Source: Clostridia bacterium
GTDB lineage: Bacteria > Bacillota > Clostridia > Oscillospirales > CAG-272
Length of the DNA stretch: 64,000 bases
Reading direction: 5' to 3'
NCBI GenBank assembly: GCA_017407835.1
Contig: JAFQVV010000006.1
Location: 5,809 to 69,808, forward strand
This document shows, one piece after another, positions 1 through 32,368 of the stretch. The notes beneath the pieces were generated by a model. The model was given only the letters and a program-made list of their open reading frames with translations. It did not search any database and was not told the origin of the DNA. Numbering within the stretch: the stretch's first letter is position 1; each line of letters starts with the position of its first letter. A program made the position numbers and the translations under genes.

Positions 1-139
1 GCATACGCCGCGACATCTCCTTCAGCTCGGACACAGTGCAAAGATCCTCGAAGAAGTTGTAGCAATCTTCCATGGAATCAAGCGTCAGGATGCCGCGAAA
101 CAAGTAGTCGATTTTTTCGTCTCGGATTTTACTTTTCAT
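1..139 (-). CDS. TrpR-like YerC/YecD family protein (partial, runs off window start)
   Basis: Manual translation MKSKIRDEKIDYLFRGILTLDSMEDCYNFFEDLCTVSELKEMSRR matches the YerC/YecD 'ECYxFFEDLCT' signature; AAAGGA RBS upstream. Confidence 0.85.
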   Translation of the reverse strand, partial: MKSKIRDEKIDYLFRGILTLDSMEDCYNFFEDLCTVSELKEMSRRM

Positions 140-255
140 GATAACTGCATTCCTTTCAATCATTTGGGAAAGTCAAATATCAGCATTTACCTGTACATAT
201 TGTACTCTATTTTTTCGCTCTTGTAAAGGGCTTTGGCGAAAATTGTCAAAAAACT

Positions 256-1665
256 TTACGCTTCCAGCGCAAGCAGATCATACAGACGATAAATGTCCCC
301 CGCCCCCATGATGATCACGACATCTCCCGCATAGACGTTTTCATTGAGCTCTTGTGCAATGGCAGCAAAATCCGCATAATAATCGGCCCTTTCCCCGATG
401 CGATCGGAAAGTTTGGCCGAGCTGACCTCGGTTGGATTGACTTCATCTCCCCGCGCGGTATAAATATCGGCAAACAAAATGCGGTCGGCATTCTCAAACG
501 CTGTCACGAAATCCTCAAACAGCTCGGCCGTTCGGGAGAAGGTATGGGGCTGGAAAACGCACCAAATGCGTTCATAGCCCATTTTTGCCAAGCCGTCAAG
601 AGTAGCCCGCACCTCAGTGGGATGATGACCGTAATCGTCAAAAACATCGGCACCGCGCAGATGGCCCTTGAACTCCATGCGGCGTTTGGCGCCGTGGAAA
701 GTCGAGAGCCCCTCGCCGATCAGCTCGGGCGAAATCCCGCAGCGGTGTGCGGCAGCCGCACAGGCCAGCGAGTTGAGAATATTATGCGCCCCCGGCACAG
801 CAAGGGCAACGTGACAGAGGAAAGTTCCGCGGAAGAGAATATCAAACTCGGGTTTTCCGCCGACATAGCGCACATTGGCAGCGGTATAATCGGATGACTT
901 GTTGGTCATACCGAAGGTGATCAGCTCACCGTTATAATATTCGAGTGCCGTACGCACATTGGCATCATCAAAATTGGCAATGGCACAGCCCCCCGGCCCC
1001 GTCTTGGCAGCAAATGCTGCGTAAGAGGTACGGATCTGTTCCAGGCTGGTAAAATAATCGGGGTGATCCATCTCGATGTTCAGGATCACGGCGATGGTCG
1101 GATAGAAATCGAGGAAGGAATCCATATATTCGCAAGCCTCAAAGAGGAAATGCTCCTCCCCACCGACATGGTATGCCCCCCCCATTTCCTCCAGCTCCGC
1201 CCCTGAGAGAACCGTCGGATTGGCGCCTGCCGCAAGGAAGGTGTGTGCACACATTGACGTACAGGTGCTTTTCCCATGCATACCCGAGATACCGACACGA
1301 TTCTGATAGGCTTCCATAATATAGCCCAGATAATCGGCACGGGAAATGCGCGGGATGCCCATCTCCTCCGCACGCACATAAAGCGGGTTATCGGGGGAAA
1401 TGGCAACCGTATACACAACAGCATCATATCCATCCAGCTGCTCGGGCTCAAGGGTATAGCAGATGGGAATTCCTTCCTCGGCCAGACGGCGAGTCAGTGC
1501 GGACTCACTGCGGTCATAACCGCCGACACCGAACCCGCGGACATGTGTGATATGCGCAAGCGATGACATATGAATACCGCCGACGCCGATGAAATATATT
1601 TTCTTGACAGGGGATAGCATTCGCGCGATCTCAGCCGCGCCGAAATGTGTATTGGGTGTTGACAT
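256..1665 (-). CDS. murC: UDP-N-acetylmuramate--L-alanine ligase
   Basis: GVGGIHMS, GMHGKST P-loop, FEACEY, DDYGHHPTE and FQPHTFSRT motifs; start moved to ATG at 1665 behind AAGGAAG. Confidence 0.95.
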   Translation of the reverse strand: MSTPNTHFGAAEIARMLSPVKKIYFIGVGGIHMSSLAHITHVRGFGVGGYDRSESALTRRLAEEGIPICYTLEPEQLDGYDAVVYTVAISPDNPLYVRAEEMGIPRISRADYLGYIMEAYQNRVGISGMHGKSTCTSMCAHTFLAAGANPTVLSGAELEEMGGAYHVGGEEHFLFEACEYMDSFLDFYPTIAVILNIEMDHPDYFTSLEQIRTSYAAFAAKTGPGGCAIANFDDANVRTALEYYNGELITFGMTNKSSDYTAANVRYVGGKPEFDILFRGTFLCHVALAVPGAHNILNSLACAAAAHRCGISPELIGEGLSTFHGAKRRMEFKGHLRGADVFDDYGHHPTEVRATLDGLAKMGYERIWCVFQPHTFSRTAELFEDFVTAFENADRILFADIYTARGDEVNPTEVSSAKLSDRIGERADYYADFAAIAQELNENVYAGDVVIIMGAGDIYRLYDLLALEA

Positions 1666-22838: not shown

Positions 22839-23198
22839 ATGAAAGAAAATACATGTCCCACAGACACCTATCTTTGCCTGACTCCCGAACGTGTGGCAGA
22901 TATTCTGGATGAAATGCCCCCCGATGAGCAGCTTTACGATCTCGCCGAACTTTTCAAAATTTTCGGCGATTCCACGCGGATTCGCATTCTGTATGCACTC
23001 TTTGAGGCGGAGATGTGCGTGGGTGATATCGCACAGCTGCTCGGACTTTCACAAACTGCCGTTTCCCATCAGCTGCGCGTACTGAAAATCAACAAGTTGG
23101 TCAAAGGGCGAAAGGAAGGCAAAATTGTCTTTTACGCCCTCGCCGATGAGCATGTCCGCCGTATCATCGATCAGGGCATGGAACATATCGCCGAATAA
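22839..23198 (+). CDS. cadC: ArsR/SmtB-family metal-sensing repressor
   Basis: LAELFKIFGDSTRIRIL, EMCVGDIA, SHQLRVL and LADEHV motifs. Confidence 0.88.
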   Translation: MKENTCPTDTYLCLTPERVADILDEMPPDEQLYDLAELFKIFGDSTRIRILYALFEAEMCVGDIAQLLGLSQTAVSHQLRVLKINKLVKGRKEGKIVFYALADEHVRRIIDQGMEHIAE

Positions 23199-23218
23199 CC
23201 GAGATAAGGAGTTACATC

Positions 23219-23437
23219 ATGAAAAAAGTGTTCAAGATGCGTGACCTTGACTGTGCCAACTGTGCACGCAAAATGGAGGATGCCATCCGCCGCATCGACG
23301 GCGTTGCCGATGTACAGATCAATTTTCTTTTGCAGAAGATGGTCTTGACGGCCGATGATACACACTTCGATGAGATTGTGGAGCAGGCAGCCCGGGTTTG
23401 CCGCAAAATAGAGCGGCATTGCGTTATCCTCCGCTGA
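23219..23437 (+). CDS. Heavy-metal-associated (HMA) domain protein
   Basis: LDCANCA metal-binding motif; split N-terminal domain of the P1B ATPase. Confidence 0.88.
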   Translation: MKKVFKMRDLDCANCARKMEDAIRRIDGVADVQINFLLQKMVLTADDTHFDEIVEQAARVCRKIERHCVILR

Positions 23438-23450
23438 AAGGAGGCACGCT

Positions 23451-25322
23451 ATGACCGGCAAGCAAAAGCGTACTTCGGCGAGAATTCTTCTCTCTGCTAT
23501 CCTCTTCGGCACAGCCATCATCCTGCCCCTGCAGGGCAATGCACGGTTGATTGTGTTTATTCTCCCCTACCTCATCATCGGCGCAGACGTGCTTTGGCAC
23601 GCGCTGTCCGGGATAGCCCATGCCCAAATTTTCGATGAAAATTTTCTCATGGCCCTTGCTACCATCGGTGCGCTCTGCATCGGCGAATATCCCGAAGCGG
23701 TCGCCGTCATGCTTTTTTATCAAGTCGGCGAATTTTTTCAGGATTATGCTGTGAACCGCTCCCGTCAATCAATCGCCGCACTGATGGATATTTGCCCCGA
23801 CAGCGCAAATTTGGAGAAAGACGGTGAACTGTTCTCTGTTTTACCCGATGCGGTCAATGTCGGGGATATTATCGTTGTCAAGCCGGGTGAGCGGATTCCT
23901 CTGGATGGCAGTATTGTCACAGGCAGCTCTTCGCTCAATACTGCGGCACTGACAGGGGAACCGCTTCCCCGCCCCGTCTCGGCAGGTGACGAGGTGTTCA
24001 GCGGCTCGATCAACGAAACCGGCTTGCTACGCATACAGGTCAGCCGACCGTTCGCCGATTCGACCGTCTCGCGCATTCTGGAGCTGGTCGAAAACGCCTC
24101 GGCAAACAAAGCAAAAGCCGAGCATTTCATCACACGTTTTGCACGCTGGTACACCCCCTGTGTCGTTGGTGCCGCCCTTCTGGTTGCGCTCATCCCCCCC
24201 CTCTGTTTGCGGGGGGATTGGCAGAAATGGCTCTATCAGGCACTGACCTTTTTGGTTGTTTCCTGCCCCTGCGCGCTGGTCATCTCGATCCCGCTCAGCT
24301 TTTTCGGCGGAATCGGGGGCGCGTCACGGCGAGGGATTCTCGTCAAGGGGGGCAATTATCTCGAAGCCTTGGCAGATGCCGAGACGGTGGTATTTGACAA
24401 AACCGGAACGCTGACCTCGGGTAACTTTCGTGTCACTGAAATTTGCCCCCTCCTGGACATTACCGCGCGTGATCTGCTCACCTATGCAGCGCTTGCTGAA
24501 ATTTATTCCGACCACCCCATTGCCCGCTCGCTGCGCGATGCGGCGGGTGAGCTTGACCGTACACGCGTTGACACTGTGCATGAAGAGGCGGGACTGGGTG
24601 TTCGGGCAATGGTAGACGGTACTCCCGTTGCGGCGGGCAGCCGACAGCTGATGGATGCCCTCTGCCTTACCGTTGATTCTTTCTCTGAAAACGGAAGCAC
24701 TGCCGTACATGTTGCCATTGACAACCAATACGCGGGATATATCATCATCGCCGATGAACCCAAACCCCATACCGCAGACACAATCGCCGCCCTGCGCAGG
24801 CTGGGTATTCGCCGAACCGTCATGCTGACCGGGGATCGCCCCGCGCGCGCGGCGCAAATCGCGGCATCGCTGGGATTGGATGACTACCGCGCCGAGCTTT
24901 TGCCTCACGATAAGGTTGCCTGTATCGAATCATTGCTCACCGAGCAAACAGGCGGGCGGCTGATTTTTGTCGGAGATGGGATCAACGATGCCCCTGCCCT
25001 CTCGCGCGCCGATATCGGCATTGCCATGGGCGGACTGGGGACAGATGCCGCCATTGAAGCCGCCGATCTGGTCATCATGGATGACAGCATCGCCAAGGTT
25101 GCCGAAGCCATTGCCATCGCTCGCCGCACAAGACGGATCGTTCGGCAAAACATCATTTTTGCCCTGTCGGTTAAGGGACTTGTGCTGCTGGCGGGATTGG
25201 TCGGAGCAGCGAATATGTGGTTTGCGGTCTTTGCCGATGTGGGTGTCGCCCTGCTTGCCGTGGTGAACGCCATGCGCTGCCTGCATACCGGCCATCCCGC
25301 ATCGGTCGAGCAGAAATCTTAA
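23451..25322 (+). CDS. cadA: Cd/Zn/Co-translocating P1B-type ATPase
   Basis: TGE, SCPCAL, DKTGT, HP and GDGINDAP motifs. Confidence 0.93.
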   Translation: MTGKQKRTSARILLSAILFGTAIILPLQGNARLIVFILPYLIIGADVLWHALSGIAHAQIFDENFLMALATIGALCIGEYPEAVAVMLFYQVGEFFQDYAVNRSRQSIAALMDICPDSANLEKDGELFSVLPDAVNVGDIIVVKPGERIPLDGSIVTGSSSLNTAALTGEPLPRPVSAGDEVFSGSINETGLLRIQVSRPFADSTVSRILELVENASANKAKAEHFITRFARWYTPCVVGAALLVALIPPLCLRGDWQKWLYQALTFLVVSCPCALVISIPLSFFGGIGGASRRGILVKGGNYLEALADAETVVFDKTGTLTSGNFRVTEICPLLDITARDLLTYAALAEIYSDHPIARSLRDAAGELDRTRVDTVHEEAGLGVRAMVDGTPVAAGSRQLMDALCLTVDSFSENGSTAVHVAIDNQYAGYIIIADEPKPHTADTIAALRRLGIRRTVMLTGDRPARAAQIAASLGLDDYRAELLPHDKVACIESLLTEQTGGRLIFVGDGINDAPALSRADIGIAMGGLGTDAAIEAADLVIMDDSIAKVAEAIAIARRTRRIVRQNIIFALSVKGLVLLAGLVGAANMWFAVFADVGVALLAVVNAMRCLHTGHPASVEQKS

Positions 25323-25385
25323 CGCACAAACCATCTGCCACTGCATCCTGCAAATCGTCAATGAACACCACTCACCGACCGTGTC

Positions 25386-25740
25386 GTGATCAACCCCTTC
25401 AGCGGCAGGCTAAATGAATATGTGTACAAAACCTACAGCAACAAATACCGTCAGCACGTCTTTTACCCCATTAGCCATCTCGACGGCGGAATGACGATTG
25501 ATCCCTATTCCTACGCCTACTGCGCCTGTATGTTCAAAACTTGGTTCAGCGAGGTCAACATCGCCGCAAAAGCAGAATTTGATGCCATGGCAGAAAAAGG
25601 CGTACAGCCTTGGGCAGGTGCTGACATCCGCGACGAGCACGGTGGCGATCTTGTCTTTGATACGAGTCCTGTTCTCATCACCTGCGACAATCTCCAGTTA
25701 TCCTCGATTTTCTGCGTCCAAAAGGCTATCATCAATCTCC
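25386..25740 (+). pseudogene. Probable internal gene fragment
   Basis: Protein-like reading frame (YVYKTYSNKYRQHVFYPISHLDGG...) with no RBS or clean ends; runs out of frame into the deaminase gene. Confidence 0.35.
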
Positions 25741-25767
25741 CCTATCCCACCCAAAGGAGGCCTACAC

Positions 25768-26178
25768 ATGACAAAATATCCGATCACCGACACAGACCGA
25801 ATCCTGATTGCAGAAGGACTGGAAGTATTAGCCCAAAATTTTGATGACGGCACATACAACCATACGGTTGGCTGTGCCCTGCTGTGCAAAAACGGAAAGA
25901 TCTACCGGGGCGTCAACTGCGACGGCATTCACGGTGCCTGCGCCGAATACATCACAATGGGCATGGCCATATCGAACGGCGAGCACGAATTTGACACAAT
26001 TGTAGCGGTTCATGAAAAGCATCTCAACGCGGTCATTCCGCCCTGCGGGAACTGCCGGCAAATGCTGTTTGAATATTGTCCCGATATCAAGGTGATTGTC
26101 AACGATGAACAGGGAAATTTGATCAAGGTCACAGCAAGAGATTTGCTCCCCTTTGCATGGGAACCTGTAAAATGCTGA
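25768..26178 (+). CDS. Cytidine deaminase-family protein (homotetrameric/blasticidin-S deaminase-like)
   Basis: HTVGCA, GVN, CAE and PCGNCRQ zinc motifs; AAGGAGG RBS. Confidence 0.88.
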   Translation: MTKYPITDTDRILIAEGLEVLAQNFDDGTYNHTVGCALLCKNGKIYRGVNCDGIHGACAEYITMGMAISNGEHEFDTIVAVHEKHLNAVIPPCGNCRQMLFEYCPDIKVIVNDEQGNLIKVTARDLLPFAWEPVKC

Positions 26179-26185
26179 AAATGCT

Positions 26186-26240
26186 GAGAATGCCGAGGGT
26201 GCTGCGCAAATTGCACTGCACCCTCGGCATTCTTCGTTTG
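26186..26240. terminator. Bidirectional terminator
   Basis: GAATGCCGAGGGTGC/GCACCCTCGGCATTC inverted repeat between convergent genes. Confidence 0.75.
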
Positions 26241-26252
26241 GTTTTGCGTTGT

Positions 26253-26879
26253 TTATTTGTCACCGGGCAGCCGATAGGTAAAGTGATCGATGCGGGTGAT
26301 GCCCATCTTGCGCAAACGCTCTGCCGTGGCATCGGTATCGCTCTCGCCGTTATAGCCGGGGATCAGCGGTACCCGAGCCACGATTCTGTCCTCGCCCGCC
26401 TGCGACAAAAGCCATGCAAGATTGTCCCAGGCAAGGTCTGCATCCCGCCCTGTGTAGGCAACATAGCGGGCGGGATCTCCCTCCTTGACGTCCACATAGA
26501 AGCAGTCAGCGGCCTGTACGGCCAGCTCCACCGCACGGCGAGGAACGGAAAGGCAGGTTTCCACGTTGATCTTCCATTCGTGCCCACAGACAGCCCGGAA
26601 AGCGGGGAAAAAATCGGCGTAGAGCAAGGGTTCCCCTCCCCCGAAAGTTACACCGCCCCCGGTGGCGCGGAAATAGAGATCGTCCCGCTTCAGCACCCGC
26701 CACAGCTCTTCGGGGGTGTAGTCCCTGGTGGCAGTCCCCTGCCGCCAGGACTGAGGATTGAGACAGTAACGGCAGCGCAGGGGACAGCCGTAGCCGCAGA
26801 CCAGAGTGGTCACCCCTTCCCCGTCGCTGGCCATCCGCAGGCGGGAAACCCCAAAGGCGCGAAAGATGGGAGCACTCAT
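26253..26879 (-). CDS. Radical SAM protein, glycyl-radical activating enzyme-like
   Basis: DGEGVTT, GCPLRCRYCLNP (CxxxCxxC), GGVTFGGGEP and RVPLIPGYN motifs typical of PflA-like activases. Confidence 0.9.
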   Translation of the reverse strand: MSAPIFRAFGVSRLRMASDGEGVTTLVCGYGCPLRCRYCLNPQSWRQGTATRDYTPEELWRVLKRDDLYFRATGGGVTFGGGEPLLYADFFPAFRAVCGHEWKINVETCLSVPRRAVELAVQAADCFYVDVKEGDPARYVAYTGRDADLAWDNLAWLLSQAGEDRIVARVPLIPGYNGESDTDATAERLRKMGITRIDHFTYRLPGDK

Positions 26880-27553
26880 GATGTGGAAGAGTCCGGGATG
26901 ATTTCAGGTGCAATCGTCACCGCGTCCCTTTCCTCCTCGGGCTCGGGGAGCAGCTGATCGTCGCCGACGAGCTCACCGACAGTCTCGGTCTCGGGCACCG
27001 GCATAGTCCCCATGAGTACCGTAGTTTCCACATACGGCTCGGTGGTGACAGTAGAATCGTCCTCCGGTTCGGGCAGGTCTGTTTCGGGTAATGGGGCGCC
27101 CATCGTAGACTCTTCAGGTCCCGGAAGCACAGGATCCCCCATCAGCGGCTCGACCGGCATCAGCCCTTCCACAACAGGTGGCTCGGTAGTCGTAGTCGAT
27201 TCCACCAGCTCACCGGGAAGATGCGTGGTCTGCTCAATCTGCTCACTTCCCGTGGTATCAGGGGGGAGCATATCCCCCTGCAGCTGATTGTTGCGGGAAA
27301 AGGGATTGTCACAGGAAGCGAGATTAACGCTCAGCAGTCCCATGGACAGGCCAACAACTGCAATGCGCTTCCCCAGAGAACGGCGTTCGGAGAGACTTCG
27401 CTCCAGCCGGCGAAGCTCGGCCTCGCAATAGGGGCAGGTACCGATACATTCCCCCGTATGCGTGCATGCACGTTCCGCATAGGGAATATTGTTGGCAGCG
27501 GCAATATCGCGGCGGATTCGGCGCAGAAGATTGCATTTTTCTTTTCCGGTCAT
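26876..27553 (-). CDS. Uncharacterised lipoprotein-like protein: Cys-rich N-terminal domain, TM/lipobox, repeated hydrophobic-x-Gly motifs
   Basis: AGGAGG RBS; CTHTGECIGTCPYC; hydrophobic stretch ending LASC; acidic Pro/Thr-rich tail; ATGA overlap with the radical SAM gene. Confidence 0.85.
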   Translation of the reverse strand: MTGKEKCNLLRRIRRDIAAANNIPYAERACTHTGECIGTCPYCEAELRRLERSLSERRSLGKRIAVVGLSMGLLSVNLASCDNPFSRNNQLQGDMLPPDTTGSEQIEQTTHLPGELVESTTTTEPPVVEGLMPVEPLMGDPVLPGPEESTMGAPLPETDLPEPEDDSTVTTEPYVETTVLMGTMPVPETETVGELVGDDQLLPEPEEERDAVTIAPEIIPDSSTS

Positions 27554-27718
27554 GGCAATTTACCTCCTGATGATTTCAATGGATAAGACGCAAAAAATTT
27601 GTTTTTGTTCCCAAGCACAGCAGAATTTTCTCCGCGCCGATATCGGAGCAGACTTGACAGGGATACAAAAAAATGATACAATACCATCATCACAATCAAA
27701 CCCGAAAGGATATATGCT

Positions 27719-28021
27719 ATGATCCGTCACGTTGTTATGTGGAAATTCAAGGAGGAAGCTGAGGGCAAGACCAAGGCCGAGAATATGCAAATCGTCCGCG
27801 ATTCTCTCTTTGCCCTGCTTCCCATCATCCCCGAGATCAAGCTCATGGAAATCGACTGCGACATCTCCCATACCGAAATGTCCTATGACATGATGCTCAC
27901 CACCGAGTTCGAGTCGGTGGCATCCATGAAAGTTTATGCAGAGCATCCCGAGCACAAAAAGGTACAAGCTTTTGTGAAAGCGGTGCGGGAAGCCCGCATC
28001 GTCCTCGACTGCGAGAGATAA
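27719..28021 (+). CDS. Dabb family (stress-responsive A/B barrel) protein
   Basis: MIRHVVMWKFK...YAEHPEH signature. Confidence 0.9.
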   Translation: MIRHVVMWKFKEEAEGKTKAENMQIVRDSLFALLPIIPEIKLMEIDCDISHTEMSYDMMLTTEFESVASMKVYAEHPEHKKVQAFVKAVREARIVLDCER

Positions 28022-28026
28022 TCGGC

Positions 28027-28085
28027 AAAGCATAAGAAAATCGGTCTGCCGCGCTGCGTCAGACCGATTTTCTTATGCTTTTTTG
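28027..28085. terminator. Bidirectional terminator
   Basis: AAGCATAAGAAAATCGGTCTG/CAGACCGATTTTCTTATGCTT inverted repeat. Confidence 0.8.
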
Positions 28086-28101
28086 CTTTTCCCAATAAAC
28101 C

Positions 28102-28521
28102 TCAATAACGAACCCACCCCATCGTGGGAACAAATACATCCACAATCCATTGGGTACAAAGGATGGCGACAAGAACACACAGCACAACAAAAAGACGCTT
28201 AAGCCAAGTATCTTTGTTGGCCAGTATTGACTTATACATATTTACAACCTCAGATTCCATCACCTTGGTGACAGAAGCCTGAGCGCGGTCTGCAATGAGC
28301 AATTCGGCATCAATCGGCGGCTTGACGGAAATGCCGGCAATCTCATCCAGGGAACCATTCATAGCAGTTACGATTGCCACCATTGTTTGAAAGTTGGCAT
28401 TTTCACCGTTTCCCGCCAGGATTCGGGTGATGGTTGACTCGGAAATACCACTTATTTCCGCAATTTGAGCAGTCGTGAGTTTTTGCTTATTTTTCAAGGC
28501 TTTCAGGCGTTCGGCAATCAC
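28102..28521 (-). CDS. XRE-family HTH regulator with C-terminal TM helix
   Basis: LTTAQIAEISGISESTITRI HTH; hydrophobic C-terminus; lower GC than flanks. Confidence 0.85.
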   Translation of the reverse strand: MIAERLKALKNKQKLTTAQIAEISGISESTITRILAGNGENANFQTMVAIVTAMNGSLDEIAGISVKPPIDAELLIADRAQASVTKVMESEVVNMYKSILANKDTWLKRLFVVLCVLVAILCTQWIVDVFVPTMGWVRY

Positions 28522-28885
28522 GGATGCATGTCCTTTCCCTCATCCGTGAGGGTACAAAATGCACCGATAACGGACAAGTACTAAAATTGATTATGGATTT
28601 TCGGGGAAATTTCGTGTATGATGGAGACACAGAGAAGGTGCAAACACATCGCTCAGGCAATCCATGCATAGACAGACAAAAACTGATCTGTTGTGGAAAA
28701 AATCCCCATGAGCAATTTTATTATACCATGCAAAATGCGATTTGTCAACTGATGAAAAGGCGCAGCCCGCCCAAAGGATTAACCGCACTTACATTAGGGC
28801 CAACAACGCCAACCCCAAAGAGACAATTTTGCACTCCTGTCAATACAATACATAAATTCATAAAAATACGGAGGAAAATAAAACG

Positions 28886-29779
28886 ATGAGAAACACCATC
28901 ATTACATCACAAACAAAATTTGACCAAGCCGCAATCCACAAAGATCTTCAATATGCACTTACCAAAAGATACGCCAACACCGATGCAGCTGTACAAGAAA
29001 GAGAAGAGGCTCCCGTTTGAAAAAAAGCCGAAGCATTCGGCAACGGCGACACAAAAAAAGAACTTGGATATTGTTCGGCCAAGCAGAACATACAGCCCCG
29101 CGAAAACGATGGAAACAGTACTTCCACGCAGATCAAAATCGGCGCAGAAGTGAATATCGCAGGGCTTATCAAAGCCAATGTAGAATGGACAAAAGCGCAT
29201 TCGGGCGAGGAAACAAGCCCCCCCAACACAGAGACAGCCGGCAATCGAGGAACAGCTGTCGTCGGTGATTATGGTACGGCAACGGCAGGCAGGAGTGGTA
29301 AAGCCATCGCCGGCGACTATGGTACGGCGACCGCGGGAAGCCGGGGCAAAGCATCGGCCGGCGACTACGGAGGTGCCACAGTGGGCAGAGGTGGAAAAGC
29401 CATCGTCGGTGACTATGGTGTTGCAGCCGCAGCCGGTCAAGGGAAAGCAGAAGCAGGCGATTACGGCACAGCCGTTTCGGGTGAAACAGCCGAAGTGGGC
29501 AAATGGGGATTGGCCGTTGTGCGAGGAATGGAAGGCAAAGCAAAAGGCGGGGTGGGATCAATTTTGGTCATTTGCGAAGAAAATAAAGGCAGTCCGCAAA
29601 CTCCCGCATGGATTGCCGTTTTCGTTGATGGAATCGACATCAAAGCCGAAACATGGTATATGCTCAAAAACGGCATATTGATGGAAGTGGCGGAGGATAA
29701 CGGATATAAATACCCATCGATGGCCTTTGCACAAAAATTCGAGAGTCTGATTTTTATTGCCCACCCAAGCAGAGATTGA
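28886..29779 (+). pseudogene. Phage-type Gly/Ala 8-aa repeat protein interrupted by an in-frame TGA at 29018
   Basis: GGAGG RBS and ATG at 28886 in frame with ORF 29150-29779; IKIGAEVNIAGLIKA, AxxGDYG repeats and VDGIDIKAETWY tail resemble phage repeat proteins. Confidence 0.6.
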
Positions 29780-29877
29780 AGGCCCCAGCCTCGCTTCGCT
29801 CGGCGCAAGAACCGCTCCCCTTCGCTCTAATCGATTCCCCCTGCCGTTCTTGTATCAAACTTCTCTTGCCCAGACAT

Positions 29878-29930
29878 CTCCACCAAAAGCAAAAGGCACC
29901 CCACAGGGTGCCTTTTGCTTTTGGCGGAGA
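29878..29930 (-). terminator. Terminator overlapping the tRNA-Ser 3' end
   Basis: CCAAAAGCAAAAGGCACC/GGTGCCTTTTGCTTTTGG inverted repeat. Confidence 0.7.
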
Positions 29931-30013
29931 AGCAGAGATTCGAACTCTGGAGGCGCTTTTAACGCCTACACGATTTCCAGTCGTGCGCCCTCGACCAACT
30001 AGGCGACTTCTCC
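29922..30013 (-). tRNA. tRNA-Ser(GGA)
   Basis: GGAGAAG acceptor, anticodon arm CACGA-CTGGAAA-TCGTG, long variable arm, GTTCGAATC T-loop, encoded CCA; TTGATT-17-TATAAT promoter upstream. Confidence 0.97.
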
Positions 30014-30251
30014 ATATTCGGGTCATGCGGACGTTGGCTATCCACGCGACTTGTATATTATACACCATCCCGCAAGAAAAATCAACCCCTCTGCGAAAAA
30101 TTTTTTCGTTTTTTTGCAATTATTTTGCAATTTCCCTCGCTGCCGAGAAAATAATGCTTGACAAAACGCTGCAAACAGGATATAATATTACTCGCTCCGA
30201 ATTTTTTCGGTATCTACGGAAAGGAACCGCCTCGGCGGTACGGTATGCATT

Positions 30252-30776
30252 ATGCTGCTTGATCTCCGTCCTCTGATGCGCGGTGAAGTGTCTGCGCTTG
30301 ACGTGGACTACACCCTGACCCCACCGCCGATGGAGGGTATCATCTTCCCCGAGTCGGCGCATATCCAAGGAAAAATCGTGGACCACGTCGAGTTCATGCG
30401 CCTGACGCTTTGCTGCGATGTCCCCTTTGTCGGCGAATGTGCCCGCTGTCTGACGCCTGTCTCCGATCGTTTGACCTTCGACTTCTCCCGAACGATTATG
30501 GACGAAAAAGGACTGCGCATGGTCAGCGACACCGAAGATTTCGATGAGGATGAATATGTCACAGTTGTGGACGGCATGCTCGACATTGATGAGCAGCTGG
30601 CAGAAGCCTTGCTCCTGGAGTTCCCTTCCAAGCTGCTCTGCCGTGAGGATTGTCCGGGGCTTTGTCCCAAGTGCGGCAAACCACTCGCCGAGGGAGATTG
30701 CGGCTGTCCCAAAAAAGAAATGGATCCTCGCTTCGAAATTTTGAAAAAACTACTTGAAAAAGATGAAAATGTGTGA
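30252..30776 (+). CDS. yceD: DUF177/YceD family protein
   Basis: ECARCL and LCREDCPGLCPKCG...DPRF motifs; conserved position upstream of rpmF. Confidence 0.9.
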   Translation: MLLDLRPLMRGEVSALDVDYTLTPPPMEGIIFPESAHIQGKIVDHVEFMRLTLCCDVPFVGECARCLTPVSDRLTFDFSRTIMDEKGLRMVSDTEDFDEDEYVTVVDGMLDIDEQLAEALLLEFPSKLLCREDCPGLCPKCGKPLAEGDCGCPKKEMDPRFEILKKLLEKDENV

Positions 30777-30826
30777 TATAATAGAGTGTATTTAATTGCA
30801 GTGACAGAATAAGGAGGGAATAAGCA

Positions 30827-31009
30827 ATGGCAGTACCGAAGAAAAAGGTATCGAAGGCCCGCAGAGATAAGAGACGTTCCAATGTTTGGAAGCTCGAGCT
30901 GCCCGGCATGACCAAGTGCCCGAAGTGCGGCGAGTACAACCTCGCACACAGAGTTTGCAAGGCTTGTGGCTCTTACAATGGCAAGGAAGTCATCAAACAG
31001 GATGCCTAA
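30827..31009 (+). CDS. rpmF: 50S ribosomal protein L32
   Basis: [17 protein letters not shown]; CPKC...HRVCKACG zinc ribbon. Confidence 0.97.
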
Positions 31010-31216
31010 ATCAAAGGTCAGGAATCTTCTCACCCAACGGTGATGAGGATTCCTTTTCCTTTTCCCGGCGAGGGATGTATCGCAGATAATGAAAATGCTT
31101 TATGTCCAGTCTGTTAATTCTCGCGCATCGCTCTTCCCATTTCGTCCAAAGCATGATATAATAAACAAACAGTGCGGCATCTCTGCCGTGCATTAAACAA
31201 AATAAGGTATGGTATA

Positions 31217-32368
31217 ATGATGAAGCGCATTTCTCTGAGAATGTTAAGTATGTTCCTTCTTGCTCTGCTGGCGGTATCTTCTTTCGCCGCGTGTAATGCC
31301 GCCCCCTCCACAGATTCTGATCAACCCTCCGACACCACAAATTCAACCGAACAAACCGAGTCAACCGAACAAACCGGCACCGTTGATCCCTTTGTTTATT
31401 TGCAGGAAGATTTAACCCCCTACATTACATTGGGCAACTACCGCGATATCACAGTTATCCGCGCATCTTCTGTTGTAACCGATGAAGATTTGGCCGCTTA
31501 TATTCAGGAAGTGTGTGAATACTATGCTGTCCCCGCACAAATTACTGATCGTGCCGCAGCCGAGGATGACACTGTCAACTTTGATTTTGCAGGGTATATC
31601 GACGGTGAACAGTTTGATAACGGTACCGCTGCAGGCCAGTCCATTACGCTCACGGGAACCGGCGGCTATATTGAGGGCTTTGTTCCTGCCATCATCGGCA
31701 AAATGCCGGGCGAATCCTTTGAGATTGTCACCACCTTCCCCGAGGATTACGGTGTTGATGAACTCAACGGAAAAGAGGCTGTCTTCAAGTGCACACTCAA
31801 CTACATTGAAGGGGATCTTATTGTCCCCGAATTCAACGATGAGCTGGCACAGGAAATCTCGGAATTTCAAACTGCCGATGAGCTGAGTGCATATCTGCGC
31901 ACCGCGATGGAAGAGGAGCTGGCAAACTCGTCAATCAACCAGCTCTATACCGATGTTTGGACACAGGTTGTCAACAATGCCACCATCCACAGCTACCCTG
32001 AAGAAAAGGTGCAGTATGTATATGAGCAGAATGTTTCCACATACACCATGTACGGTGCCATTTACTACAACGAAAGCTATGAACAGTTCCTCCTCCGCCA
32101 GGGAATGACCGATGACGATGTGCTCGAAGAAGCAAAGAGCATGATCAAGGAAGATCTTGTTTTCTACGCCATCGTTAAGGCAGAAAACATCTCGATTTCT
32201 GATGAAGAATTCGAAGCAGAGCTTCCCGAATTTGCTGCTTACTACGGTTACGATGATCCGCAGGGGATCGTCGACACCTACGGCAAAGAAGCCATTGTTG
32301 ACGGCATGCTCTGGAATAAAACCCAGGATCTGCTCTTAAGCTGGGCAAATATTGTTGATGAAGAATAA
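31217..32368 (+). CDS. Exported trigger-factor-like FKBP PPIase lipoprotein
   Basis: Lipobox FAAC; FKBP domain (DFAGYIDGEQFDNG, FPEDY, LNGKEAVF) plus trigger factor C-domain; no ribosome-binding GFRxG motif. Confidence 0.85.
   Translation: MMKRISLRMLSMFLLALLAVSSFAACNAAPSTDSDQPSDTTNSTEQTESTEQTGTVDPFVYLQEDLTPYITLGNYRDITVIRASSVVTDEDLAAYIQEVCEYYAVPAQITDRAAAEDDTVNFDFAGYIDGEQFDNGTAAGQSITLTGTGGYIEGFVPAIIGKMPGESFEIVTTFPEDYGVDELNGKEAVFKCTLNYIEGDLIVPEFNDELAQEISEFQTADELSAYLRTAMEEELANSSINQLYTDVWTQVVNNATIHSYPEEKVQYVYEQNVSTYTMYGAIYYNESYEQFLLRQGMTDDDVLEEAKSMIKEDLVFYAIVKAENISISDEEFEAELPEFAAYYGYDDPQGIVDTYGKEAIVDGMLWNKTQDLLLSWANIVDEE

Follow-up and report, generated by a model that had tools for sequence, protein, structure and literature searches.

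Glycyl-radical activases are textbook one-enzyme, one-substrate systems, and to our knowledge all characterised members of the clade of PflA (E. coli; structures 3c8f and 3cb8), which includes the families TIGR02493, TIGR02494 and NrdG, abstract a hydrogen atom at a glycine C-alpha. The radical SAM enzyme anSME, which lies outside this clade, modifies a backbone-adjacent position in a short protein motif in the cytoplasm, before export; it recognises C/S-x-P-x-R, needs no substrate-borne docking domain, and its own chain includes a SPASM domain that binds two auxiliary clusters. In the Crp system of methanogens (CrpA/CrpB with the rSAM-SPASM enzyme CrpC), the available text of the source describes a radical SAM enzyme that acts on whole proteins, with paralogous substrates whose conserved N-terminal region of ~47 residues is likened to a RiPP leader, and with thioethers formed by the SPASM enzyme CrpC on Cys-rich C-terminal regions (PMC13692751). 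Sactipeptide synthases such as GggB (streptosactin) work at the backbone C-alpha of a ribosomal product, with leader-plus-core logic and several precursors per enzyme; going by the available text, they are SPASM/RRE enzymes on peptides of some tens of residues, accompanied by dedicated transporters and proteases (PMC9389541).

The stretch of DNA analysed here, a 64,000-nucleotide window of a Clostridia bacterium genome (GCA_017407835.1), holds a precursor-like membrane protein or lipoprotein gene (gene 1) followed by a gene for a PflA-like radical SAM (rSAM) enzyme (gene 2; Table 1). Both genes lie on the minus strand, and the two-gene operon with an ATGA overlap that the initial annotation had described is present; among the 45 non-Bacteroidota loci with the rSAM gene, 15 show such a 4-nt stop/start overlap (a gap of −3 in the ORF table). 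The signal scan returned no sigma-70-like site upstream of gene 1 on the minus strand and no terminator 3' of gene 2, and an Rfam scan of positions 25000-31500 matched only a tRNA-Ser, with no riboswitch or similar element.

Table 1. Coordinates of the two-gene locus and its features (positions in the window)
Feature	Position	Strand	Basis
Gene 1, 225-aa precursor-like membrane/lipoprotein	26876..27553	-	ORF and translation; 37 homologues
Gene 2, 208-aa PflA-like radical SAM (rSAM) enzyme	26253..26879	-	Pfam and NCBIfam scans
ATGA overlap of gene 1 stop and gene 2 start (translational coupling)	26876..26879	-	plus strand reads tcat
Shine-Dalgarno AGGAGG, 9 nt 5' of the gene 1 ATG	27563..27568	-	read from sequence
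Gene 1 Cys domain, residues 1-63: basic helix, Cys-rich loop, helix	27365..27553	-	alignments A1, A2, A5; AF2
Gene 1 hydrophobic segment, residues 64-80, then lipobox-like L78-A79-S80-C81	27311..27364	-	read from sequence
Gene 1 acidic Pro/Thr/Glu tail, residues 82-225	26879..27310	-	read from sequence
Gene 2 CX3CX2C cluster motif CPLRCRYC (C32, C36, C39)	26763..26786	-	invariant in alignment A3
Gene 2 GGVTFGGGEP, presumed SAM-binding GGE region, residues 75-84	26628..26657	-	alignment A3

Gene 2 matches Radical_SAM (7.9e-19) and Fer4_12 (8.3e-09), which are its only Pfam matches at E <= 1, with no SPASM or twitch domain; in alignment A3 its sequence stops short of where such a domain would start. 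Both PflA-type motifs first noted in this short protein are present, and within the second, to which we assign a SAM-binding role from general knowledge of radical SAM enzymes, residues G75, G76, F79, G81, G82 and E83 are invariant in the same alignment, which has no additional invariant Cys beyond the cluster motif. The top NCBIfam matches are glycyl-radical activases, and among the 38 families matched the 25 listed all fall under their curated cut-off (TIGR02494, PFLE_PFLC, 128.6 versus 174.35; TIGR02493, PFLA, 91.4 versus 231.75). TIGR02494 aligns in two stretches, 10-39 and 101-254 of its 293 positions, skipping positions 40-100, and gene 2 therefore lacks the ferredoxin-like insert with two auxiliary 4Fe-4S clusters. 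A phmmer comparison placed residues 18-193 on residues 15-191 of the 245-residue PflA chain 3c8f (E = 1.4e-11). We observe that gene 2 shares with PflA and the other activases the N-terminal CX3CX2C, the DG-x-G stretch ahead of it, the GGE region and a partial TIM-barrel fold, whereas it ends some 39 residues before PflA does, has no glycyl-radical enzyme partner and is paired or fused with a five-Cys domain that PflA does not have. The fold match is that of a fused homologue (L016), whose AF2 model (pLDDT 90.9) superposes on PflA with bound peptide (3cb8_A) with a Z score of 29.8 and an rmsd of 2.0 A over 238 of 244 residues, the window enzyme itself being compared by sequence only. By homology, the expected chemistry of gene 2 would be hydrogen abstraction from a backbone Gly of a protein substrate. 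A PADLOC match of gene 2 to pVip (19 bits) was put down to general radical SAM likeness.

The best family matches being glycyl-radical activases, gene 2 might be an ordinary spare activase for the pyruvate formate-lyase (PflB) or anaerobic ribonucleotide reductase (NrdD) that the genome does encode, with gene 1 as an unrelated neighbour. However, gene 2 falls under every curated cut-off, including those of TIGR02494 and PFLA, and in Bacillota, Bacteroidota and Chloroflexota alike its pairing with the Cys domain has been kept, natural fusions included. As had been pointed out at the start, no glycyl-radical enzyme is encoded in the window (contig C38); the only PF01228 protein of the genome lies on contig C31 and NrdD on contig C10, each beside its own activase-like gene. 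Furthermore, in the tree 67 linked rSAMs together with L142 group in a single clade (SH-aLRT 98), from which the 29 PflA/NrdG-like sequences stand apart. Since PflB and NrdD have their own adjacent activases and the rSAM clade is separate, a canonical glycyl-radical partner elsewhere in the genome is disfavoured, and we regard the spare-activase explanation as very improbable.

The partner of this enzyme carries the ~60-residue N-terminal domain with the spacing C30-x5-C36-x3-C40-x2-C43 that had been read from gene 1, and, in addition, a fifth Cys, C7, which the initial annotation had not included and which is invariant across gene 1 homologues. The residues invariant in alignments A1, A2 and A5 are K4, C7, L10, R14, C30, C36, G38, T39, C40 and C43, and the domain is predicted to be a helix-loop-helix (AF2, pLDDT 88.7; helices 3-20 and 41-60). 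With five invariant Cys suggesting a metal site, the domain is probably metal- or Fe-S-binding. Scans of Pfam and NCBIfam assign gene 1 to no family: Fer4_4 matches the Cys domain weakly (E = 0.78; 10.7 bits versus a cut-off of 24), no NCBIfam model of a metal-binding domain matches it, and PADLOC has no match for gene 1. A comparison of the Cys-domain model with 48,161 structure chains returned nothing beyond generic helical hairpins (best Z 5.6), and residues 1-63 found only unnamed clusters in the ESM Atlas, with scores of 0.85-0.87, under the lead level of 0.9. A match of TIGR03826 (YvyF) to the Cys domain of one homologue (L018) was taken as chance (E = 0.0041; 17 bits versus a cut-off of 124).

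Across genomes, we observe that the Cys domain and the enzyme are linked obligatorily, almost without exception, so that the co-occurrence proposed at the outset as a check on the pair is borne out. The Cys-domain profile matched 12 of the 400 scored genomes of the class, 11 of them real; the match in G294, to a ferredoxin stretch within a hydrogenase-like ORF of 592 aa, was excluded from the counts. The rSAM was found at E <= 1e-30 in nine of the 400 genomes, all nine among the 11 with a real Cys domain, and in each of these the two share contig and strand, the matched segments being 72-486 bp apart and the Cys domain less than 500 bp away or in the rSAM's own frame (9/9). Loci were also fetched through the Cys domain (the best 80 of at least 611), a sample that is therefore biased to close relatives of the window domain. 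Bacteroidota account for 27 of the 74 fetched loci, which bears out the initial annotation's mention of similar Cys-rich N-termini beside such rSAM genes in Bacteroidetes. In the non-Bacteroidota loci, the rSAM gene is directly downstream on the same strand in 45 of 47, which is 45 of 45 evaluable loci, as the remaining two end 495 and 668 bp past the Cys-domain gene. In the Bacteroidales there are one to four Cys-domain paralogues per rSAM. Three Cys-domain genes accompany the rSAM in each of the loci L046 and L104, and four in L091; one enzyme thus serves several Cys-domain proteins. Where the rSAM is missing from the Cys-domain locus of a Bacteroidales genome (n = 5 genomes), it is encoded elsewhere in four (E <= 5e-73). 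No third gene family occurs in more than six of the 74 loci, apart from one 14-locus cluster that we take to be a spurious gene, its example lying antisense over the acidic tail. The two genes are best explained as a self-contained protein-modification module, and their pairing points to an undescribed protein-modification system; full-text searches of openly accessible papers returned no description of the pairing.

Behind the Cys domain, a hydrophobic segment is found in 88 of 88 unique homologues, ending in a lipobox-like sequence (loose pattern) in 73 of them. In the specific case of gene 1, the hydrophobic helix ending in LASC was described correctly from the start: L-A-S-C81, to be set beside the lipobox consensus [LVI][ASTVI][GAS]C, adjoins a 17-residue hydrophobic stretch, preceded by an n-region of 63 residues that is folded. 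A folded domain of 60 residues ahead of the signal peptide is atypical for lipoproteins, and LASC is a putative site of cleavage and lipidation. Residues 1-63 are conserved among homologues and the tails are unalignable, with G114 conserved in at least 90% of alignment A1. The eight hydrophobic-x-Gly pentamers reported for the acidic tail of gene 1 are all there (G93, G114, G130, G139, G152, G182, G193 and G197); the tail has 10 Gly in total, six of them with L or V at position −2. Conservation of these motifs, which had been singled out as a check, holds in the otherwise unalignable tails as an enrichment: 50 acidic tails hold 111 copies of [LIVMF]-x-G-[DE]-[LIVMFAP], with one or more in 46 of them, versus 9.9 +/- 3.1 (maximum 21) in 1,000 same-tail shuffles, an enrichment of ~11-fold for a motif that was chosen after viewing the same tails, with tails that are kin to each other and shuffles that control composition only. 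A related pattern occurs 63 times in 38 domain-type tails versus 14.7 +/- 3.8 in shuffles. Given the recurrence of the pairing in three phyla and a tail motif above all 1,000 shuffles, the association is more than chance.

We favour, with a probability of about 50%, the reading that the Cys domain docks the rSAM, which acts on the Gly motifs of the tail before Sec/Lsp export. The five-Cys domain would leave the ribosome first, fold and recruit the minimal PflA-like rSAM in the cytoplasm, and the 5'-deoxyadenosyl radical would then take a backbone hydrogen at or next to the Gly of hydrophobic-x-Gly-(Asp/Glu)-hydrophobic motifs. The hydrophobic segment would next direct the gene 1 protein to Sec, the Cys domain would be removed at the lipobox by signal peptidase II (in some relatives at an Ala-x-Ala-type site), and the modified acidic tail would end up lipid-anchored on the cell surface. 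We infer the Gly motif as the modification site, and likewise what the product is, that modification precedes export, and how the lipoprotein is processed. A glycyl radical would be unstable on a disordered exported tail, and the product must therefore differ from that of the known activases. We know of no precedent for cross-linking by a minimal rSAM without a SPASM or twitch domain, and a sactipeptide-like cross-link from a Cys of the domain to a Gly of the tail was rejected, as the split form has the Cys domain within the enzyme. A model of the complex of rSAM, Cys domain (1-63), 4Fe-4S and SAM hints at physical docking, with an ipSAE of 0.48 (median of three runs; best of three controls 0.01) and a mark that is reached by 116 of 157 solved complexes and two of 215 mismatched pairs, but at 0.60 or under by only 18 of the 157 solved complexes plus both passing mismatches. 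The runs showed 100% contact agreement and a partner pLDDT of at least 76.

With the Cys domain as dock and the Gly motifs as target, the pair would resemble anSME in motif-directed protein modification before export, unlike anSME in that gene 2 has no SPASM match. With rSAM-SPASM maturases of RiPPs and proteins in general, it shares a conserved N-terminal region joined to a variable one and several precursors per enzyme. With Crp, the pair would share action on whole proteins in place of short peptides, and paralogous substrates with a conserved N-terminal region. It differs from Crp, as far as the available text of that source describes it (PMC13692751), in that the window Cys lie in the conserved N-terminal domain while the variable part has few, and in the lack of a SPASM domain in the enzyme and the export of the proteins. 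Relative to the sactipeptide synthases, with which the pair would have radical SAM chemistry at a backbone C-alpha, leader-plus-core logic and several precursors per enzyme in common, neither SPASM/RRE domains nor dedicated transporters or proteases are present here, going by the Pfam scan and the gene families of the loci.

The architectures of the Cys domain bear on which part of the system is the substrate. In G208, G403 and G249 the rSAM carries the domain as a C-terminal fusion, and each of these three fusions is followed by an ORF of 81-97 aa that combines an ordinary signal peptide with an LLTGC lipobox and a motif-bearing tail. One motif copy fits the LMGDVAY-type motif of tethered tails; G081, with its fused gene broken into two ORFs, was left out of this count. 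The motif-bearing lipoprotein is thus retained when the Cys domain moves onto the enzyme. Were the Cys domain itself the substrate, with, for example, a radical or cross-link at the invariant G34, G38 or T39 or at a Cys and a tail motif irrelevant to the enzyme, there would be no reason for this lipoprotein to lie directly downstream in 3/3 intact fused loci, and a 1:1 fusion to the enzyme would permit one turnover only. The domain is, moreover, predicted to be a well-folded helical hairpin (pLDDT 88.7), unlike the flexible loops bound by PflA-type enzymes. On the other side, it is the sole element common to every architecture, G38, T39 and the five Cys are invariant, several paralogues per enzyme fit a substrate role, and domain and enzyme are still found together where the protein has no tail (G121 and G058). 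On balance we consider the Cys domain an unlikely substrate.

A rather unlikely, if slightly better placed, explanation is that the Cys domain is an auxiliary Fe-S, electron-transfer or membrane-tethering subunit, that the real substrate is something else, for instance a different protein, a lipid or a small molecule at the membrane, and that the exported domains are passengers or sensors. Related activases have the Cys-rich ferredoxin insert that gene 2 lacks at positions 40-100 of TIGR02494, and the Cys domain can be fused to the enzyme. In addition, alignments of the fused model with MoaA (2fb2_B; Z 14.6, rmsd 6.0, model 25..309) and anSME (4k38_B; Z 14.4, rmsd 3.9, model 25..296), ranges that give first and last aligned residues only, reach the Cys-domain region, where MoaA and anSME have C-terminal auxiliary-cluster domains. 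A mere cofactor subunit, however, would not be expected in two to four tandem paralogues with different exported domains, nor with a signal-peptidase site between it and the exported domain, nor with a conserved tail motif, and the loci contain no other conserved candidate substrate gene.

Taking the docking of the Cys domain and the targeting of tail Gly motifs one step further, we tentatively put forward the possibility, which we hold with less confidence, that the PflA clade has a large second branch with exported proteins, in place of glycyl-radical enzymes, as substrates. Here, a minimal rSAM core would be complemented by a substrate-borne, detachable five-Cys (Fe-S) auxiliary domain for oxidative chemistry at the Gly C-alpha of hydrophobic-x-Gly motifs (e.g., alpha-functionalisation, backbone cleavage or amidation, or epimerisation of a neighbouring residue), and signal peptidase would then discard the domain. 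If true, surface lipoproteins and TonB-like proteins would carry a new backbone modification in anaerobes of the gut and rumen, and an auxiliary domain borne by the substrate and cleaved at export would give radical SAM maturases a new design principle. A sister branch whose partner is a new Cys domain on exported proteins would extend the known roles of the activase clade, and the two small genes make the modification question directly testable.

As a partner of the enzyme, the Cys-rich region acts like a portable module. The initial annotation had called it a leader; the Cys-rich region is confirmed, but with five invariant Cys, a predicted fold and its portability it is more than that. Besides its place on the enzyme, it is found at the C-terminal end of soluble proteins, as in the 333-347-aa proteins of G121 and G058 with no lipoprotein nearby, and before RNA-polymerase-alpha-CTD-like domains, as in P0037, where it precedes two RNA_pol_A_CTD domains. 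These proteins have no exported tail; export is therefore not shared by all Cys-domain proteins, and there may be targets other than the motif. Many Bacteroidales members have an N-terminal membrane anchor, a linker and TonB_C (PF03544, E = 1.6e-19; TIGR01352, E = 1.6e-11), an arrangement in common with the TonB-family proteins of Bacteroidota, whereas canonical TonB has neither a 60-aa Cys-rich cytoplasmic domain nor a linked radical SAM enzyme; gene 1 itself has no TonB_C domain in the Pfam scan. The initial proposal of a modification system for a surface protein is supported in part: the system is not confined to a single surface protein but takes in lipoprotein tails as well as proteins with TonB_C or CarboxypepD_reg. 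Although abundant, the Cys domain lacks annotation, with no Pfam or NCBIfam model, and every source name encountered for a protein carrying it is "hypothetical protein". It is found in Lachnospiraceae, Oscillospiraceae, Bacteroidales and Anaerolineae of gut and rumen, and given this spread could mark a common modification of cell-surface proteins there. At E <= 1e-3, it matches 2947 representative clusters (50% identity), and it occurs in at least 6918 clusters at 90% identity and at least 611 places in species-representative genomes.

Gene 1, encoding the lipoprotein-like protein with the N-terminal Cys domain, and gene 2, encoding the PflA-like radical SAM (rSAM) enzyme, form the ATGA-overlapping operon read in the initial annotation, with the start of gene 2 lying within the stop of gene 1 and AGGAGG lying 9 nt before the gene 1 start. 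The flanking genes (a convergent cytidine-deaminase-like gene, a divergent Dabb gene, an XRE-type regulator, and an ArsR and P-type ATPase pair) are oppositely oriented or of other function, indicating a stand-alone two-gene unit; no Rfam elements were found upstream of it.

Features of the two-gene unit and its surroundings, in window positions
Feature	Position	Strand	Remarks
Gene 1	27553..26876	-	225 aa
Gene 2	26879..26253	-	208 aa, rSAM protein
ArsR-family regulator	22839-23198	+	part of 22839-25322 group
72-aa ORF	23219-23437	+	Cys-x2-Cys metal-binding look, read from sequence only
P-type ATPase	23451-25322	+	623 aa; E1-E2_ATPase 1.7e-47
Repeat ORF	29150-29779	+	209 aa
tRNA-Ser (anticodon GGA)	29922-30013	-	ARAGORN and Rfam

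The gene 1 protein, which has no family in Pfam or NCBIfam, consists of a basic N-terminal region of 63 residues with five cysteines (C7, C30, C36, C40, C43), a hydrophobic segment (residues 64-80) ending in L-A-S-C81, and a Glu/Pro/Thr-rich tail of 144 residues. Alignment with homologues is confined to residues 1 to ~63 plus the hydrophobic segment; K4, C7, L10, R14, C30, C36, G38, T39, C40, and C43 are invariant in all architectures. An AF2 model of the domain (pLDDT 88.7) predicts a helix (3-20), a Cys-rich loop (21-40), and a second helix (41-60), and matches only generic helical hairpins among 48,161 solved chains (Z ≤ 5.6). Against 1.84 billion representatives, the domain profile gave 2947 matches at E ≤ 1e-3 and 2606 at E ≤ 1e-10, with the domain at the extreme N-terminus in nearly all of the 150 representative matches listed. 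A search for longer proteins found it in 6918 of 8000 candidates (E ≤ 1e-6); every source-given name was "hypothetical protein," and no Pfam domains were found in the 120 listed. One library protein (P0160, 262 aa) matches the profile in two stretches (best 190-247) and may hold two copies or one placed differently.

The pairing of this domain with the rSAM enzyme, which the initial annotation had proposed, holds across genomes. The window's genome has a single Cys-domain gene. Of 400 class genomes scored, the profile matches 12, one of which (G294) was dropped as a ferredoxin motif within a hydrogenase-like ORF. The rSAM is found in nine of the 400 (E ≤ 1e-30). Each of these nine is one of the 11 real domain genomes, and in each the two matched segments share contig and strand and lie 72 to 486 bp apart; the remaining two of the 11 have both in one gene (G249) or a fused gene broken into two ORFs (G081). 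Neither gene was found in the 14 genomes of the same order, indicating that the pair is patchy. A scan of species-representative genomes gave at least 611 confirmed places, the top 80 of which yielded the 74 loci analysed (45 Bacillota, 2 Chloroflexota, and 27 Bacteroidota). In 45 of the 47 Bacillota and Chloroflexota loci the rSAM gene lies directly downstream on the same strand, and the other two loci stop 495 and 668 bp past the Cys-domain gene. Nine Bacteroidota loci have the rSAM (5 same strand, 4 convergent), 17 are without it inside the 1 to 4 kb fetched, and one is without a complete ORF. For four of five Bacteroidales whose locus is without the enzyme, it is found elsewhere in the genome (E ≤ 5e-73), adjoined by another Cys-domain gene in three of these four. 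Tandem paralogues accompany the rSAM in two Bacteroidales loci (four in L091, three in L104), and an Oscillospiraceae locus has three Cys-domain genes with the rSAM; no third gene family is recurrent in the loci.

Gene 2 (CPLRCRYC and GGVTFGGGEP motifs; Pfam Radical_SAM, 7.9e-19) resembles PflA in fold and sequence, yet falls outside the glycyl-radical activase family in score, partner, and insert. Its top NCBIfam families are all such activases, every one under its cut-off (TIGR02494, 128.6 versus 174.35; PFLA, 91.4 versus 231.75), and the TIGR02494 match is split in two, leaving out the ferredoxin insert. The closest solved protein is Escherichia coli PflA (E = 1.4e-11), to which residues 18-193 align over 15-191 of 245, so that the C-terminal end of gene 2 is ~39 residues shorter. 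That gene 2 is a spare ordinary activase is highly improbable: in the window's genome (2.07 Mb, 98% complete), the one Gly_radical protein has its own adjacent 252-aa activase (contig C31), and NrdD (contig C10) has an activase-like gene just upstream, leaving gene 2 as a third, partnerless member. Compared with the window's enzyme, rSAMs beside or fused to a Cys-domain gene score 101 to 488 bits and unlinked PflA- or NrdG-like genes of the same genomes 23 to 90 bits, with the sole exception of L142 (201 bits), whose genome has a Cys-domain gene elsewhere. In a tree of 97 rows (IQ-TREE quick, LG+G4), rooted on the NrdG-like gene of the window's genome and built without identical duplicates or matches of <150 residues, the 67 linked rSAMs group with L142 in a single clade (SH-aLRT, 98); the unlinked rows set against them are limited to one bacterial family and the window's own genome. 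Within the clade the fused forms branch as sister to all others, and Bacteroidota and Chloroflexota rows are nested among Bacillota rows, a pattern suggestive of transfer between anaerobes of the gut and rumen.

The commonest architecture is the Cys domain, a hydrophobic segment, and a variable tail. The segment is present in all 88 unique proteins of the loci, with a lipobox-like end in 73 by a loose pattern and mostly Ala-x-Ala-like ends in the remainder. Bacillota have acidic, disordered tails; Bacteroidales tails carry TonB_C (E = 1.6e-19) or CarboxypepD_reg (7.6e-17) domains; four of eight proteins scanned had no domain family whatever. In one Bacteroidales paralogue group (L033-L037, L049) a conserved Cys precedes the tail motif, C-D-T-(Y/I/F)-x-x-x-G-(I/V)-V, and the C-terminal ~150 residues, without a Pfam family, end in a conserved ...LR.

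In three class genomes (G208, G403, G249) the Cys domain is instead fused at the rSAM C-terminus. The AF2 model of the fused form (pLDDT 90.9, pTM 0.89) superposes over residues 7-247 on PflA with peptide (3cb8_A; Z 29.8, rmsd 2.0 Å, 238/244 residues), the Cys domain (253-307) being an extra module. The next ORF is in all three cases a small lipoprotein (81 to 97 aa as called) that combines a short signal peptide of ordinary type, an LLTGC lipobox, and an acidic or Pro-rich tail bearing the Gly motif; one of the motif copies matches the LMGDVAY-type motif of tails attached to the Cys domain. Retention of the tail protein when the domain sits on the enzyme indicates that the three elements belong together functionally, the domain acting with the enzyme and not simply being placed ahead of a signal peptide. 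It is close to certain that enzyme and Cys domain are functional partners; that the domain is merely an auxiliary or tethering subunit, the substrate being something else, appears doubtful. The split G081 gene (L107 4621-5532, + strand; ORFs of 147 and 90 aa with ~200 nt between) is followed by no small lipoprotein and is probably a decayed copy.

Export is not obligatory, as soluble forms indicate. G121 (L108 6228-7229, - strand) and G058 (L019) encode, directly before the rSAM, a 333- to 347-aa soluble protein that carries the Cys domain C-terminally and has a ~260-residue N-terminal part without a Pfam or NCBIfam family; this protein may represent a different substrate class. A metagenome protein without a membrane segment (P0037, 272 aa) has the Cys domain followed by two RNA_pol_A_CTD domains (PF03118, 185.6 bits); LMGD-like motifs lie between these two and again after the second.

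Eight of the 10 Gly in the gene 1 tail lie in the hydrophobic-x-Gly pentamers that had been proposed as modification sites, and this motif is conserved. Across 388 Gly in 50 acidic tails, Leu/Ile is enriched at -2 (L 4.6-fold), Asp/Glu at +1, Val/Ile at +2 (2.5- to 2.7-fold), and Tyr at +4 (3.1-fold). The pattern [LIVMF]-x-G-[DE]-[LIVMFAP] occurs 111 times, at least once in 46 of the 50, versus 9.9 ± 3.1 (maximum, 21) in 1000 composition-preserving shuffles, and [LIVMFYP]-x-G-[LIVMDE]-[LIVM] occurs 63 times versus 14.7 ± 3.8 in the 38 other tails (present in 33), both patterns having been written after viewing these same, related tails, with shuffles rather than unrelated acidic tails as the sole control. 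Conservation of G114 is 90% or higher among the window's close relatives, where the LQGD and LMGD sites are found again.

A complex model of the enzyme, the Cys domain (1-63), a 4Fe-4S cluster, and SAM reached an ipSAE of 0.48 (median of three runs) versus 0.01 for the best of three controls, a verdict of "weak support," with 100% contact agreement between runs and partner pLDDT ≥ 76. Of 157 solved complexes, 116 reach the ipSAE mark, as do 2 of 215 mismatched pairs; values of 0.60 or under account for only 18 of the 157 and for both passing mismatches. Given the strong prior of fusion and linkage, the model lends mild support to docking. The best-supported mechanism, with a probability of about one-half, is that the Cys domain docks the minimal PflA-like enzyme, perhaps complementing it with a metal cluster; the enzyme would then act in the cytoplasm on Gly motifs of the attached protein (the adjacent protein in the split form), after which Sec and signal peptidase would export the tail and remove the domain. 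That the Cys domain is itself the substrate we regard as unlikely. The PflA clade is known for hydrogen abstraction from Gly C-alpha, and it is solely from this habit that we infer chemistry at the tail Gly. Because a disordered exported tail could not plausibly keep a glycyl radical stable, some other product is to be expected.

Modification of tails before export would be similar in logic to anSME, which modifies a protein before its export, and to rSAM maturases guided by a leader, among them the Crp system (PMC13692751), which works at the protein level. These have a SPASM domain, recognition element, and accessory genes, whereas the window's system is without them. No description of the rSAM-Cys domain pairing was found in open-access full text or bioRxiv. 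We regard the system as a form of radical SAM protein maturation in which new chemistry is a real possibility.

Elsewhere in the window, the ArsR regulator, 72-aa ORF, and P-type ATPase look like a heavy-metal efflux operon. In the 209-aa ORF, a ~14-residue unit of G-D-Y-G-T-A-T-A-G-x-x-G-K-A type is repeated ~8 times in tandem; the ORF matches DUF4774 weakly (E = 6.7e-06).
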